Below are positions 1 through 10,936 of a stretch of DNA of 17,795 bases, in pieces (the first letter of the stretch is position 1; every line of letters begins with the position of its first letter). Under the pieces are notes generated by a model. It searched no databases. It saw only the letters and a program-made list of their open reading frames with translations, and had not been told where the DNA came from. A program made the position numbers and the translations under genes. The stretch spans positions 1-17,795 of the forward strand of contig JBBRXO010000056.1 of the NCBI GenBank assembly GCA_038248345.1, in the 5' to 3' direction. The DNA is from Armatimonadota bacterium (GTDB lineage: Bacteria > Armatimonadota > Hebobacteria > CAIYQO01).

Positions 1-36
1 CCTTCCCGCGCCGGGAAGGGGGCGGGGGGGGGTAGG
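1..36. repeat. REP-like CCTTCCC..GGGAAGG palindrome, probably truncated by the window start
   Basis: ccttccc-gcgcc-gggaagg hairpin followed by a G-run and taggt; same layout as 1168-1205 and 12787-12821. Confidence 0.6.
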
Positions 37-144
37 TAGACCAAGGCTAACGCCATAGATACGCTGTCAGTTTTTCATCTACAAATAATGAAGCTCGCTT
101 CATTACCGATTACTTTAACGAATTGCCTCCGCTAAAACGGGACA

Positions 145-165
145 AGTGACTAGCGACTAGCGACT
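145..165. repeat. Short tandem heptamer repeat (GACTAGC)n
   Basis: agt-gactagc-gactagc-gact, just past the capsid stop codon. Confidence 0.7.
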
Positions 166-169
166 TACC

Positions 170-1060
170 TCACCCCACCAGATCCACTATGGCGAAGGCG
201 GTGGGGGCGGCGATTACGCCGTCGACACGCTCTTCGGCGCGGAGCAGCACCTCGTGGCGCTGGAAGGCGCTGCGTATTTCGTCGCCGACGTTGTAGGCGG
301 CTTCGCTGCTGCGCGTGAGGGTGAAGTCGCGGCGGTCGCCGATGATGAACTGTTTCCAGTCACCGGCTAGGATCGCCGTCTTATTGCCGGTGCCCAGCGT
401 GGCGGGCACCTGGCGCGAGAAGATCACCGGCAGGCCCCAGAGCATATCCGGTGCGCCGCTGCTGTCGGCGGGGGAGAAGATGAAGCGTCCGTCGCCGTCC
501 TTGGCGGCACGCAGCAGCGACTTCACCCGCGGATTAGTGATGAAGCCGGTGGCCGAGTAGCCCGCGCTCTCAATAGCTGCCAGCGCGGCGGCGGTATCAT
601 CCACGATGTCGCCGGTAGAGGTGACTTTCGGCACCGTCGAATCCTGATAGATGCCGGTGATCGGGCCACTGGTGTCGAAGCCCAGGAAGGCGGTGTCTTC
701 CTTGCTGGCAAAGCTGTCTGCCAATAGCTGCGCCACCACCCCGGCGATGCCGCTGTTTGCATCGGCGATCAGCTCCTCGGTCACCGGCACCAGCACTGCC
801 AATTTGTGTGCGGTGAGCTGCAGGCTGTCGAACGATGGCGCGTCCACCCCGTCATCCTCTCCCTCGTTCACCCATTGTGCCGCCACGCCGCTCACTAATC
901 GCGGCAGTGAGAGCGTCAGGCTGGTCATCGGTATCACCTGCGCCAACCGGCGCACTACCGAGGCCACCCCCAGCCGTCCCAGGATCGCCTCGCGCACCGG
1001 CGCTGGCACCAGCACCCCACCTTGCGCTCCGTTTCCCTCTTTAAGTGGAAAAGTTCCCAT
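170..1060 (-). CDS. Phage major capsid protein, HK97 fold (296 aa, no delta domain)
   Basis: Motifs GGVLVP, AQWVNEG, PSFDSLQLTAHKLAVLVPVTEELIAD, LRAAKDGDGRFIF, LWGLPV, ILAGDW and AFQRHEVLLRAEERVDG are typical of HK97-family capsids. RBS AAGGAG upstream. Confidence 0.93.
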   Translation of the reverse strand: MGTFPLKEGNGAQGGVLVPAPVREAILGRLGVASVVRRLAQVIPMTSLTLSLPRLVSGVAAQWVNEGEDDGVDAPSFDSLQLTAHKLAVLVPVTEELIADANSGIAGVVAQLLADSFASKEDTAFLGFDTSGPITGIYQDSTVPKVTSTGDIVDDTAAALAAIESAGYSATGFITNPRVKSLLRAAKDGDGRFIFSPADSSGAPDMLWGLPVIFSRQVPATLGTGNKTAILAGDWKQFIIGDRRDFTLTRSSEAAYNVGDEIRSAFQRHEVLLRAEERVDGVIAAPTAFAIVDLVG

Positions 1061-1089
1061 GGTTTCTCTCCTTTTTTGGTTGTTGATAA

Positions 1090-1205
1090 ACCTACTCCCC
1101 AGCTCCCTTCCCTACAAGGGAAGGGGGAGCAAGGTTAGTTTTCTAATGGATAATCAATCGATCGTCACCCCTTCCCCTTGTAGGGGAGGGGATGGGGATT
1201 AGGTG
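1090..1205. repeat. Inverted pair of REP-like CCCTTCCC..GGGAAGGG palindromes between scaffold and capsid genes
   Basis: Two hairpins in inverted orientation. The 19 nt AGGGGATGGGGATTAGGTG (1187-1205) is identical to 12803-12821. Confidence 0.8.
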
Positions 1206-1213
1206 TTCCACCA

Positions 1214-1543
1214 TCACCCCCGCAGCCACCGTGCAAAGGCTGCGCCCGGGTCTGCCGGGGAGCCGGGGGCGGGGTTTACCCGCTCCGCCGTGTGCTCCGG
1301 GATGAAGAGGTAGTTGCGCGCCGAGTGCAGCTCAGCCACTGCCTCCGGCACGCCGCTCACCGCCCCGGCTTCATCTACAGCTACCCCGGTGCGATCCAAC
1401 AGCAGCAACGCCGCCTCCACATCGCGGCATCCGGCGCGCTGTAACTCCAGCGCCAGCGCCCCCTGCGTCACACTCGTGCGCCAGCGCGCCTCCAGCTCCA
1501 CCACCCGCGTCTCCGCCGTCGGCTCTTCCAACTCTTCGTCCAT
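1214..1543 (-). CDS. Phage capsid scaffolding protein, GP20-like (109 aa)
   Basis: ATG at 1543 follows GAAAGGAGGG. Acidic helical N-terminus, AGCRDVEAALLLLD, SGVPEAVAELHSARNYLF (YLF motif), Pro-rich linker and C-terminal amphipathic helix AAFARWLRG; directly upstream of the capsid gene. Confidence 0.78.
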   Translation of the reverse strand: MDEELEEPTAETRVVELEARWRTSVTQGALALELQRAGCRDVEAALLLLDRTGVAVDEAGAVSGVPEAVAELHSARNYLFIPEHTAERVNPAPGSPADPGAAFARWLRG

Positions 1544-1573
1544 ACACCCTCCTTTCACATACCAAATAGCGAA

Positions 1574-1618
1574 GGCGAGGGGCTGCCGCTGCAACCCCTC
1601 GCCTGGCACCGGTGTGCC
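1574..1618 (-). promoter_or_regulatory. Structured 5' leader: 5-bp hairpin plus 13-bp GC-rich, terminator-like hairpin
   Basis: Transcript reads GGCAC-ACCG-GUGCC A GGCGAGGGGUUGC-AGCG-GCAGCCCCUCGCC UUCGCUAUUU, between the promoter and the scaffold RBS. Confidence 0.55.
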
Positions 1619-1645
1619 TCAACGATTTCGTAGATTTACGGGTGG

Positions 1646-1674
1646 AATATAGCACACATACGTTTGTTTGTCAA
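1646..1674 (-). promoter_or_regulatory. Sigma70-type promoter of the scaffold-capsid operon
   Basis: TTGACA-17 nt-TATATT on the minus strand. Confidence 0.75.
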
Positions 1675-1690
1675 GCGCCGAGCGAGTTTA

Positions 1691-1708
1691 GTTACCTCAT
1701 GTGGTAAC
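1691..1708. promoter_or_regulatory. Palindromic candidate transcription-factor site
   Basis: GTTACC-T-CATG-T-GGTAAC, centred about 60 bp upstream of the predicted capsid-operon start site. Confidence 0.45.
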
Positions 1709-2086: not shown

Positions 2087-2152
2087 ATGAACTCTTTCCC
2101 GCGCTTTTGCGCTTGTGAGGCTGAGATCGTGACCACTACCGGGACGCCATAG
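2087..2152 (+). CDS. Leaderless threonine-rich attenuator leader peptide (MNSFPRFCACEAEIVTTTGTP)
   Basis: ATG lies 7 nt after the -10 box with no RBS. ACC ACT ACC GGG ACG codons precede TAG and overlap a hairpin; the ORF is upstream of thrS. Confidence 0.78.
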   Translation: MNSFPRFCACEAEIVTTTGTP

Positions 2153-2182
2153 CGTTGCCGGGAGATTTCGTGTGTTTGCTGC

Positions 2183-2216
2183 ATCCCTCCCGGATTTAAC
2201 TGGGGGGATTTTTTTT
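2183..2216 (+). terminator. Attenuator intrinsic terminator in the thrS leader
   Basis: ATCCCTCCCGG-ATTTAA-CTGGGGGGA followed by T8. The 5' arm CTCCCGG can pair instead with CCGGGAG (2158-2164). Confidence 0.82.
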
Positions 2217-8607: not shown

Positions 8608-8850
8608 GTAGCATGGGCGTCCCGCCCATGAAATCGTGCGAGGAAAACCACGAAGGCACGAAGACACAAAGAGAAGAGGGGCAGGCGGACGACCGGGACG
8701 ACATGTCCGCTGTAGTTAGGACTTTTGTTGGGGCACATGGCATGTGCCCGCGATACAGGTATAGTATACATGACCAATTGAAGGTATGGTTACGCAGGGG
8801 GCACAAGCCTTGTGCCCCTACAACTGGGTTGTGGGTGGAACCCACGTAAG
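8608..8850. repeat. Mosaic cluster of REP-like palindromes
   Basis: GTAGCATGGGCGTCCCGCCCATG (8608-8630); CACGAAGG/CACGAAGA/CACAAAG octamers (8649-8671); GTTGGGGCACATGGCATGTGCCC (8727-8749) / GGGCACAAGCCTTGTGCCCCTAC (8798-8821); GGGTTGTGGGTGGAACCCACGT (8826-8847). Confidence 0.75.
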
Positions 8851-8860
8851 GATGGTTCAG

Positions 8861-9721
8861 ATGAAGTGGTCACCCATAGCCATAGTTGGCATTATCGCAG
8901 CAGTGGCGACAGTCGTTACTACGATATCTTTCATCGCGTATTTCACGTCTGTTTCAAGAGATAAACAGCAGTTAGTCGATGCTGTTTATCATCAGGATGC
9001 AGATGCAGCAGACAAAATACTTACGGAAAGTCGGCTGAATCCTGATGATGTATATGATTACACCCACTTTGATTCAATGACTGTATCATTGATGGCAGTT
9101 GCGATGATGGACAAAAACGAGTCAAAACAGATACCGGTAATCCTGGTATTGTTGAAGCACGGAGCAGATGTTAACAAAGAATCAGATGGATTTTTACCAA
9201 TCGAAAGCGCAATGCATAATGGGAATCACCAAGTATACCGGATATTGCTGGAGCACGGTGCCACCATGTCACCGATAAATAACTTCATCGCATCCGCAGT
9301 TCAAGGCGCAAATATGGACATTCTTAAAGATATTATAAATCGCGGAGCGAGCGTCAATGCTCGTAGCAAAAATGGAGCTACACCGTTACATATTGTCCCT
9401 AATTCAGCAGTGGCAGAATTATAGCTCGCCAAAGGCGCTGATATAAAAGCAGTGAACGCGGACGGCAATACGCCGTTACATAACGCTCATGATGCATACA
9501 TTGCAGATCAGCTGATCGCCAAAGGTGCCGATGTTAACGCTGTGAACAAGAAAGGTGATGCTCCGATTCACACGGCGATTATGAGTTACCATGATGATGT
9601 CGTCGAGATTCTACTCGCCTACGACGCTGATAAATTGAAAGTGAATGGAACGGGACTCACCCCGTTGCAATTGGCAAAAAAATATGAAGCCAGCAAAATT
9701 GTGAAATTGCTGGAAGAGTGA
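8861..9721 (+). pseudogene. Membrane-anchored ankyrin-repeat protein interrupted by an in-frame TAG at 9422-9424
   Basis: Track ORFs 8786-9424 and 9452-9721 share one frame. Reading through gives GATPLHIVPNSAVAEL*LAKGADIKAVNADGNTPLH, a continuous ankyrin repeat. N-terminal TM segment; TAAGGA before ATG 8861. Confidence 0.8.
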
Positions 9722-9786
9722 AAGCAGGAAATTGGAAATAAAACATTACTTTAACGCTGAACCTCAAACACCTAATCATCTTCGCC

Positions 9787-10936
9787 ATGGTAATGGCGAT
9801 GCTGATCTCCACCGCCCTCTTTTCGCGCAACCTGCATGTGCAGGCGAAGCCGGTGCCGGTGGAGATAATGAACGCCAAGGTAAAATTCCACGGCGATGCC
9901 GGGAAAGCCGACGCTAAATATTATTTCGTGGGAGATGCATCGTCTGCTATTGTCCCCGAAGGCTACACACCACTTTATCCGGTATCAGTTAACAGGCTGA
10001 TTGGCTTTATGGATAAAGAAGGTAAGCTGGTGATTGAGCCACAGTTCGCCTCTATCGGTGGTAGTAGCATGGGTTCAACTTGTTCTGAATGGAAAATGGG
10101 GGTGTATCGATAGAGATGGAAAAACAGTAATCCCATTAGGTATCGACTTTGATTATCAGAAGTTGCCAATATATTTCAGGGAGGGCTGTTGCTACATCTC
10201 CGAAGAACCGAAGCCGTATGTCTTAAAAGATGCAATAGAATACCCACAGTATTATATCGATGTGAAGGGGAATAATTTACATCTAAATACTGAGTCGCAA
10301 GGTGGCACTTTTTTTGACAACGGGAAAGCATTTATTAATAGCAAAAAAGAAAAGGGCTGGGTGCTCATAGATAGGAAAGGAAAAATATTGTCCAAAGCAT
10401 ATGACGGAATCGTTAGAATTTATGATGGTTTGAACGGTTCGATATATGAGACAATGTTGCCAGATATAATGGATATCTAGGATGTCATGCCCGGCGTTTA
10501 CGCGTCTACAAAATATGGGGTATATCTTTTTCACAATGACTTGGCGATGGTGATGAATTACTCAGATGGCGATCCCCAATTTGGTTTCATCGATAGTAAG
10601 GGTACTGAAGTCATTGCACCAACCTACTTTAAATTGGGTTGTTTTAGTGAAGAATTGGCACGCGTAAAAATTGGCAATAAATGGGGCTACATCAACAAGT
10701 TGAATCAACTGGTTATTAAGCCAAAGTATGAAGATGGGGATGACTTCCAGGAGGGTTTGGCGGCAGTAAAATTTAATGGTAAGTACGGCTTCATCGACAA
10801 AACGGGCAAAATGGTGATCAAACCAAATTACGACGATGCCGGTAAGTTCAAGTGTGGGCTGGCTCTGGTGCAAGAGAAAGAAAAATGTGGTTACATTGAC
10901 GCAGTGGGCACGGTGGTGTGGGAACCGATGGAGTAA
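9787..10936 (+). pseudogene. Secreted WG (KWG)-repeat protein with a frameshift near 10060 and an in-frame TAG at 10478-10480
   Basis: Three ORF pieces: GFMDKEGKLVIEPQF, then a +1 shift to VAWVQLVLNGKWGCIDRDGK, then TAG, then KWGYINK..FQEGLAAVK..YGFIDKTGK in the same frame. The start position is uncertain. Confidence 0.8.

Follow-up and report, generated by a model that had tools for sequence, protein, structure and literature searches.

Bacillus subtilis PBSX and the tailocins are phage-like particles that are kept by their hosts, induced by damage, devoid of replication and equipped with lysis genes; PBSX and the R-type tailocins use contractile tails for killing, and the F-type tailocins are headless and long-tailed. 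Family 3 encapsulins are not known to have portal, terminase, scaffold or tail partners and lie adjacent to cargo genes or a biosynthetic cluster. Gene transfer agents (GTAs) are understood here in the sense of Kogay et al. (2022; PMC9662315), with six criteria, and in the accessible part of another source those outside the alphaproteobacterial type are described as not findable by homology, as they resemble prophage remnants and are split over loci (PMC11841831). The GTA of Brachyspira hyodysenteriae (VSH-1, BhGTA) is induced by DNA-damaging agents, with large-scale lysis (PMC9662315, in part). Here, a window of 17,795 bases was analyzed, which is the entire contig JBBRXO010000056.1 (C56) of an Armatimonadota draft genome (G000; 2.98 Mb, 95.7% complete), and which carries an operon of a capsid scaffolding gene and a capsid gene.

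Four further stand-alone modules were found on other contigs of G000, namely a portal gene, an ATPase/nuclease terminase, a head-completion and short-tail cluster, and a gene for a protein of 59 amino acids (aa). Together with the scaffold-capsid operon they very probably form a host-kept, co-regulated tailed-particle system. That this system acts as a host-domesticated, SOS-controlled GTA-like particle goes beyond the gene anatomy, and we put the probability of this reading at roughly 0.65. For the fuller proposal, an independently evolved GTA, the first in Armatimonadota, with its late operon in five LexA-rewired modules, a two-chain terminase that packs host DNA without small subunit and a new, phage-derived antitermination pair as the commitment switch, the case for and against appears evenly balanced. 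No account of a GTA or of a domesticated prophage capsid in Armatimonadota was found in a literature search that left most subscription papers outside. The first-pass annotation of the window had offered a dispersed GTA-like system, a scaffold-assembled protein compartment or a bare anti-phage decoy capsid as explanations. The first is strongly supported by the other modules, their common promoter type, purifying selection and trees largely congruent with that of the hosts, whereas the latter two are unsupported because portal, terminase with catalytic motifs and tail cluster co-occur and share regulation. The features of the operon on which the argument depends are the following.

1214..1543, minus strand: capsid scaffolding protein, 109 aa, ATG at 1543 (PF06810, 39 bits, cut-off 35; phrog_194)
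170..1060, minus strand: HK97-fold major capsid protein, 296 aa (PF05065, E 7e-53; phrog_10 major head protein, E 2e-64)
1548..1554, minus strand: ribosome-binding site of the scaffold gene (from sequence)
1068..1073, minus strand: ribosome-binding site of the capsid gene (from sequence)
1646..1674, minus strand: sigma70-type promoter, TTGACA-17-TATATT with extended -10 TG, 11 of 12 matches (promoter scan; kept in relatives)
1653..1666, no strand assigned: palindrome of the LexA type (AAC-N4-GTT family) in the spacer of the promoter, probably an operator of the SOS response (17th of 1534 with the matrix from lexA and recA sites only)

Both reading frames are intact and have Pfam and PHROG matches, in agreement with the initial description of an intact pair in the order scaffold then capsid, and the good ribosome-binding sites claimed for it are present as an AAGGAG-like site before either start. 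The capsid protein is devoid of an N-terminal delta domain and of a protease fusion, and its gene is the sole PF05065 gene in G000; the scaffold gene is single copy in all five genomes tested. The near-consensus sigma70 promoter of the initial description was also recovered, and the same promoter precedes the scaffold gene in 6/6 carrier genomes. Since a scan of positions 1-2400 returned three such sites as compared to 1.2 ± 0.9 in shuffled sequences, the promoter of the capsid operon is by itself modest evidence. All five module promoters bear a palindrome that is also found before lexA and recA. An unsupervised motif search in 14 lexA and recA upstream regions detected the AAC-N4-GTT palindrome at 5/5 lexA and 2/9 recA genes, and these seven sites made up the operator matrix; the seven recA regions excluded for want of a convincing box belong to genes that seem to lie inside an operon. 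When 1,534 upstream regions were scored with this matrix, the promoters of the portal, the terminase and the 59-aa gene ranked equal top and those of the capsid and tail operons 17th, the windows of the terminase and the 59-aa gene being set by hand because the gene list lacked their starts. The palindrome, which overlaps the promoter and is common to lexA and recA, resembles the Gram-positive LexA box GAAC-N4-GTTC (PMC3323433, consulted in part), and its position suggests that it is likely a LexA operator. This palindrome and an attenuator RNA (1573-1624) had both been overlooked within 170..1708 in the first reading.

The combined promoter pattern occurred 4-34 times per genome in five carriers as compared to 0-4 times for the reversed control, and 0-3 times in five non-carriers as compared to 3-6 for the control. 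In the genomes G003, G009 and G011, with 14, 24 and 34 pattern matches including the modules, boxed sigma70 promoters with conserved flanks are dispersed without a gene behind them (for example at loci L182, L197, L201, L204, L222 and L231); they are perhaps a mobile promoter cassette or small-RNA genes. Another boxed promoter (L220, contig C131 of G003) stands about 290 bases before a gene labelled amidase-like by sequence reading, the tail cluster of this genome having no amidase. Two further loci of G000 lie near the palindrome, namely a tandem array of three related genes without assigned family, close to a match on C58 (9348-12877), and a stand-alone 213-aa gene on C37 (L078:2233-2871) with a strong palindrome and a weak virion-protein match (E 0.06). 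The latter was dropped as a further module, being present in one of 31 genomes only, G000 itself.

Terminase, portal and tail genes, for which a genome search had been proposed, were all found on other contigs behind the same type of promoter. The portal is a single SPP1-type gene, present in 6/12 genomes of the family and alone on another contig in 5/5 carriers read, with a promoter resembling that of the capsid operon; the portal family PF04860 was set aside, as it matched only G005, where the best match belongs to an ordinary prophage. The large terminase of G000 appeared to be missing by Pfam (PF03237, PF04466), and these negatives were false since the gene turned up on C158 through a scan for capsid-type promoters. 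It is encoded by two genes, one for an ATPase of 243 aa (phrog_38, E 2e-62) and one for an RNase-H nuclease of 236 aa (PF17289, E 3e-16). The ATPase orthologues share 63-87% identity in open frames of 248-303 aa, and the gene ends at the same place in 6/6 carriers, the nuclease gene being next in five of them; the contig of the sixth runs out in repeats. Motifs that we take to be of the Walker A/B-like, coupling and acidic nuclease types do not vary among five aligned ATPase and four aligned nuclease sequences. The two halves are predicted to dock: the modelled pair scored 0.88 as compared to 0.00 for the best of three controls, with 100% agreement between runs and a partner pLDDT (predicted local distance difference test) of 81, at a mark that is reached by 116 of 157 solved pairs and 2 of 215 mismatched pairs. 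The modelled contacts lie between new C- and N-terminal extensions, and the good score may stem from a resemblance to full-length terminases of solved structure. Two half-length PHROG profiles match the respective halves almost end to end, so that split terminases probably exist in some phages too, and no description of a split large subunit was found in the literature covered.

The tail cluster was located on C127 by scanning G000 for the palindrome. It encodes adaptor, closure and terminator proteins, a tail tube with an Ig-like domain (54-73% identity between orthologues), a chaperone, a tape-measure-like protein of 140 aa (133-188 aa across carriers), a distal-tail-like protein and a hub, in which the contig ends. 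The tape-measure and distal-tail labels were given by position, helical or glycine-rich make-up and a weak match in an ordinary prophage-like locus, no family matching. In four relatives, genes for a LamG-domain tip protein and a holin-like protein of 70 aa come next in the cluster, followed by an amidase in three and by a second small membrane protein in two of them.

This gene content bears on the main rival, that is, a domesticated killer particle akin to PBSX or a headed bacteriocin, which would be induced by the SOS response, would carry host DNA as ballast and would kill kin via its LamG-tipped tail. The SOS-type operators, the lysis genes, a weak YqbQ-like match of the hub (E 0.23) and a fibre sequence that varies between genomes are in line with it. 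However, no sheath gene was found among the scanned proteins of four complete tail clusters, and the conserved portal and terminase would cost effort that killing does not need. PBSX and R-type particles come from a single locus and have a contractile tail, and tailocins are headless, whereas here the genes are dispersed and include head and terminase, with no sheath seen. Furthermore, the tape-measure-like protein is in the size range of that of the Rhodobacter capsulatus GTA (RcGTA; 113+83+20 residues according to the available text of PMC7296036). We therefore consider the killer particle unlikely and retain the GTA-like particle as the preferred reading.

Portal, terminase ATPase, capsid and tail tube genes co-occur in the same 6/12 genomes of the family, all comparisons being made between draft genomes, and lie among unrelated host genes. 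On the 90-kb contig C151 of G003, the terminase lies at 25 kb, the capsid at 50 kb and the tail at 78-86 kb, flanked by lpxC/fabZ/lpxA, ddl/ftsQ and ligA/rplT/infC, i.e., genes of lipid A synthesis, cell division and translation. As three modules thus stand 25-30 kb apart on one contig among host genes, their dispersal is real and not an effect of assembly. A Pfam scan of 55 proteins, mostly from this contig, detected no integrase and no replication family, and no uninterrupted stretch of packaging, head and tail genes accompanied by an integrase, a repressor or replication genes was seen, host genes standing beside the loci read. Ordinary contiguous prophage-like clusters do occur (L027 on G005 C82, L102 on G014 C129, L103 on G023 C175), and that of G005 is present alongside the scattered modules. 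The first-pass annotation had held that absence or patchiness in related genomes would speak against a maintained pair; the distribution is indeed patchy, and the modules are all present or absent together.

These findings also bear on the explanation that an old prophage was broken up by rearrangement and is now weakly selected or co-opted piecemeal, without any particle. It would agree with carriers that are not one clade, with a ratio of nonsynonymous to synonymous substitution rates (dN/dS) that is higher at larger distances, with repeats that interrupt several intergenic regions and with the split terminase. By contrast, none of the module genes read is disrupted in any carrier, the same promoter with a copy of the operator stands before each module, the modules come and go together, and the terminase is split at the same point in 6/6 genomes into halves predicted to dock. 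Moreover, the selection recommended as a check proved to be purifying in the two closest genome pairs: dN/dS, determined according to Nei-Gojobori, was 0.10-0.28 for 11/11 genes between G000 and G001 and 0.12-0.27 for 7/7 genes between G003 and G009, which disfavours decay. Broken prophage remains are thus very improbable. Between genera the synonymous distance is compressed, thrS itself showing a dN/dS of 0.29-0.31. The codon adaptation of 12 module genes lies between the 55th and 92nd percentile of 1,880 genes and is thus host-like. As for the congruence of the capsid tree with the host tree, also recommended for checking, the capsid-scaffold tree differs at one node, and the portal, terminase and tail trees branch as the host tree of the six genomes.

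Close relatives of the capsid are confined to the family. Among 61 genomes searched, 16 gave a match, and close orthologues (72-86% identity) were present only in five besides G000, all of its family, the other genome matches reaching 23-31%. In a protein collection, 8,000 scored candidates yielded 12 capsids at 68-100% identity and then a gap down to 25-31%, and a profile search of 1.84 billion representatives returned one cluster (50% level) at 553 bits with the next at 192. Seven capsid loci in IMG/VR showed 27-41% identity over partial lengths, and the best identities among 1,157 matches in 50,697 GenBank phage records were 31-34%; neither source holds a close capsid, none exceeding about 34% over most of its length. 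The likeness to the RcGTA capsid Rcc01687 is distant (profile E 8e-18, ranked below two phage capsids).

An encapsulin-like nanocompartment made from capsid and scaffold alone would fit an operon that stands alone and a capsid of PF05065, to which the phage-capsid-like (family 3) encapsulins, likewise found outside prophages, belong as well. It is nevertheless barely credible: the system here has scaffold, portal, terminase and tail partners that co-occur and share regulation, there is no conserved cargo neighbour, and none of the 23 solved-structure matches of the capsid was named encapsulin. For the GTA-like particle, a second layer of control is predicted in the leader of the operon, where two features stand between promoter and scaffold gene.

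1600..1624, minus strand: conserved leader hairpin, predicted antiterminator or protein-binding RNA (leader alignment)
1564..1604, minus strand: predicted intrinsic terminator hairpin of the operon leader (folding; U-tract degenerate in G000, clean in most orthologues)

In the first hairpin, a lower stem of 4 bp and an upper stem of 5 bp flank a GA/A internal loop, and the 3' arm of this hairpin doubles as the 5' arm of the strong terminator-like hairpin. It was recognized in 12/12 aligned leaders of capsid and tail operons and in a 13th read later. In the alignment 99% of cells are paired and 4/9 pairs change on both sides; the covariation of 0.424, as compared to 0.181 for shuffled alignments and no more than 0.131 after sliding, is overstated because the structure was derived from these same, related sequences. 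Folding energies were -7.5 to -12.7 kcal/mol for the first hairpin and -22 to -54 for the terminator, and in 2/12 leaders the 5' part alone folds differently. Given this large difference in stability in favour of the terminator, read-through would depend on a protein. On both strands of G000, 39 generic hairpin matches were found, and a terminator follows in two of them, the capsid and tail leaders only. An Rfam search over positions 1-2400 returned nine sub-threshold matches, none on the leader.

The candidate for such a protein is encoded by the 59-aa gene on C15 of G000, which was found by the genome scan for capsid-type promoters and which is present, with a boxed promoter, in 5/6 carriers. 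Two AlphaFold models of the protein are weak (pLDDT 54 and 64), Foldseek returned nothing at E 0.001, and the Atlas matches for a homologue were all under 0.9; identity with DUF2292/YezD was rejected, as PF10055 gave no match up to E 10 in five genomes. A profile search of 401 genomes of the phylum detected the gene in the five carriers and in three others. In G191, a prophage-like cluster (L251:4710-6312) has the same arrangement as an IMG/VR contig (L261:3000-3650), namely a homologue of the 59-aa gene, a sigma70 promoter, two tandem hairpin elements with terminators and a protease-capsid-neck operon; both are phage-like head operons, and being related to each other they amount to about one independent case. 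In G061 a looser leader element lies behind a weak homologue, here a 110-aa gene with the same small domain twice, followed by a sigma-like gene in a mobile-element context (L260:1495-1990), and G027 has a terminator-like hairpin and no scored element. Weak matches in G002 and G008 (E 0.006, within frames of 252 aa) as well as in G261 were not accepted as orthologues. Because distant homologues adjoin the same element in two phage-like loci, the 59-aa protein is likely an antiterminator acting on the leader RNA, and we infer that the two are an antitermination pair of phage late genes that was passed on together with the structural genes; the units in L251 and L261 are a candidate for an undescribed phage antitermination system. 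The literature search returned no description of a small phage protein that antiterminates late genes through an RNA hairpin, and no relevant account of DUF2292. Likeness exists to the BglG/LicT antiterminators and their ribonucleic antiterminator (RAT) targets, in which a short hairpin with an internal loop overlaps an intrinsic terminator and a protein is needed (PMC5393181, seen in part), whereas here the 59-aa protein is without family match, the RNA without Rfam match, and phage morphogenesis genes are controlled.

Such phage-derived late-gene control, with an antiterminator-like gene and a leader RNA also found in phage loci, could respond to an infecting phage, and it is in line with anti-phage interference, in which the cell's own heads and tails, made upon damage or infection, would mis-package or divert phage DNA or adsorb to receptors. 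Patchy presence, which is typical of defence genes, points in the same direction. Yet interference would not require so complete a set of portal, terminase, tail and lysis genes, the modules show no island-like clustering, and each gene is single copy in the carriers, so that this explanation appears quite improbable next to a GTA-like particle.

With regard to the definition of GTAs, Pfam and PHROG assign capsid, scaffold, portal, terminase, connectors, tube and hub to Caudoviricete-derived tailed-particle proteins, as judged from genes alone, and these genes are endogenized at five loci among host genes, in draft genomes. As for vertical inheritance, three of four module trees branch like that of the hosts carrying the system; the carriers are not one clade, and the set comprises six genomes only. 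As for a gene set exceeding one particle, the modules of G003 span at least 60 kb of the chromosome, and the portal and the small gene lie on other contigs. Two of the six criteria are thus recognizable, and the system is a candidate GTA and not a member (PMC9662315, seen in part). Like RcGTA and the GTA of Caulobacter crescentus (CcGTA), it would combine a Caudoviricete-derived head with a short non-contractile tail, a very short tape measure and a partly vertical-looking inheritance; its genes lie at several loci, as those of RcGTA do at five (PMC9662315, in part), and its control would be two-tiered with antitermination, as described for CcGTA in the accessible text of 10.1101/2023.11.12.565669. 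Contrarily to RcGTA, its origin is likely independent, it has an SPP1-type portal and a separate scaffold instead of a protease, and close homology or synteny with the RcGTA head-tail cluster was not found, the portal type and the gene layout being different: RcGTA has one head-tail cluster, whereas capsid, portal, terminase and tail here occupy separate loci and the terminase is split in two genes. Each promoter bears a LexA-type box predicted to act in repression, a further difference to both agents, and antitermination is predicted to operate via the leader RNA hairpin and the 59-aa protein, whereas the GafZ element is located in promoter DNA (10.1101/2023.11.12.565669, in part). BhGTA, likened here by description only, is similar in its likely dispersed genome with the terminase apart from the structural cluster; it belongs to another phylum, and split terminase and RNA attenuator are not mentioned for it in the available portion of PMC9662315.

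Following this, we propose that LexA would repress all five promoters and be cleaved in the SOS response, and that the transcripts of the capsid and tail operons would halt at the leader terminator until the 59-aa protein accumulates, which by binding the GA/A-loop hairpin would block folding of the terminator and thereby impose a delay and a threshold. Scaffold, capsid and portal would then assemble a prohead without maturation protease, and the terminase halves would re-associate and fill the heads with host DNA; non-specific packaging is proposed because no contiguous genome, no replication or integration gene beside the modules and no small terminase were found. A short non-contractile tail with the tape-measure-like protein (133-188 aa) and the LamG-domain tip would be added, holin-like proteins and amidase would lyse the producer, and recipient cells would import the DNA and use it in recombination or repair. 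The ComEC family is present in 12/12 genomes of the family and, occurring in carriers and non-carriers alike, does not discriminate with respect to DNA uptake.

Several observations weigh against this reading. Particles, packaged DNA and transfer are deduced from genes, SOS induction would also fit killer particles, and the assignment to LexA relies on position before lexA (5/5) and recA (2/9) and not on binding. In genus g3 many boxed promoter copies have no gene behind them, and so the motif alone is no marker of a module. With PF03592, the only family tested, no small terminase was found; the assembly of G000 has no fibre, holin or amidase, C127 stopping within the hub, and the G003 tail cluster lacks an amidase. 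In G001, which is 77% complete, no 59-aa gene was detected, and the product of this gene has no family, Atlas or fold match. Between G003 and G011 dN/dS was 0.13-0.67, and 0.32-0.67 for 10/12 genes, and for the tape-measure-like gene it reached 1.0 in the comparison of G003 with G005, which is one between genera. The capsid-scaffold tree differs from the host tree at one node within one genus (42% support). The carriers are rejected as one clade among 12 genomes of the family (approximately unbiased test, p = 0.002; markers ThrS, RecA and RpoB, with missing data), and capsid, portal, terminase and tail orthologues were all not found in six genomes of the family, one of them 98% complete. Non-monophyly together with these absences requires repeated loss or old horizontal spread.

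The surroundings of the operon are in accordance with its description as stand-alone, no phage genes adjoining it and only repeats and the divergent thrS lying upstream. The features concerned are two.

1105..1190, no strand assigned: palindromic dispersed repeat separating the scaffold and capsid genes (repeat comparison)
1..169, no strand assigned: non-coding contig end after the capsid stop, containing a repeat (sequence, BLAST)

The latter had been reported as repeat-rich, and its left end falls in a dispersed repeat with 24 matches on 18 contigs, so that no sequence further left is readable in G000; contigs from three DNA sequencing runs cover the stretch, and no usable sequence left of the contig end was obtained from them. 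In 5/5 other carriers, host-type genes and not head-completion genes lie 3' of the capsid stop. The repeat between scaffold and capsid genes is not conserved, the gap measuring 34-301 nucleotides at five other loci. The operon is flanked by host-type genes in the relatives, and the conserved synteny with thrS that had been suggested for testing fails, as the neighbours differ in each genus. In G009, whose assembly has 780 contigs, the scaffold gene stands at the edge of a contig, and the start of the capsid gene comes after a repeat and a divergent gene, which may be due to a misjoin. The upstream side of the operon in G000 consists of palindromic repeats with 23-38 BLAST matches on 15-17 contigs; over window positions 1-60, 1105-1190, 1745-1860 and 1884-1999 several families of palindromic intergenic repeats have 5-38 BLAST matches in the genome, and similar ones occur between the terminase halves and at contig breaks. 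Before thrS (2087-2215, plus strand), a threonine-rich leader peptide of 21 aa with three consecutive Thr codons precedes a terminator, and a similar peptide with the same short motif was detected in 8/10 genomes of the family checked, which likely indicates ribosome-mediated attenuation of thrS. Further along, positions 8786-10936 have a low GC content (40-47%) and hold ankyrin-repeat and WG-repeat-like genes broken into short frames; this stretch is possibly acquired and decaying.

Taken all together, these results provide a genomically well-supported GTA candidate in another phylum, found via shared operators and co-occurrence, and make GTA prevalence and repeated domestication testable questions. 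A direct control by the SOS response would be relevant to the proposal that GTAs function in DNA repair, and the split terminase without evident small subunit offers a handle on the origin of non-specific packaging. The 59-aa protein and the leader RNA look like an undescribed antitermination system, present in phage-like loci as well, which can be tested in a simple reporter. If the fuller proposal is true, the shared promoter and leader would provide a homology-free route to dispersed GTAs in other phyla.

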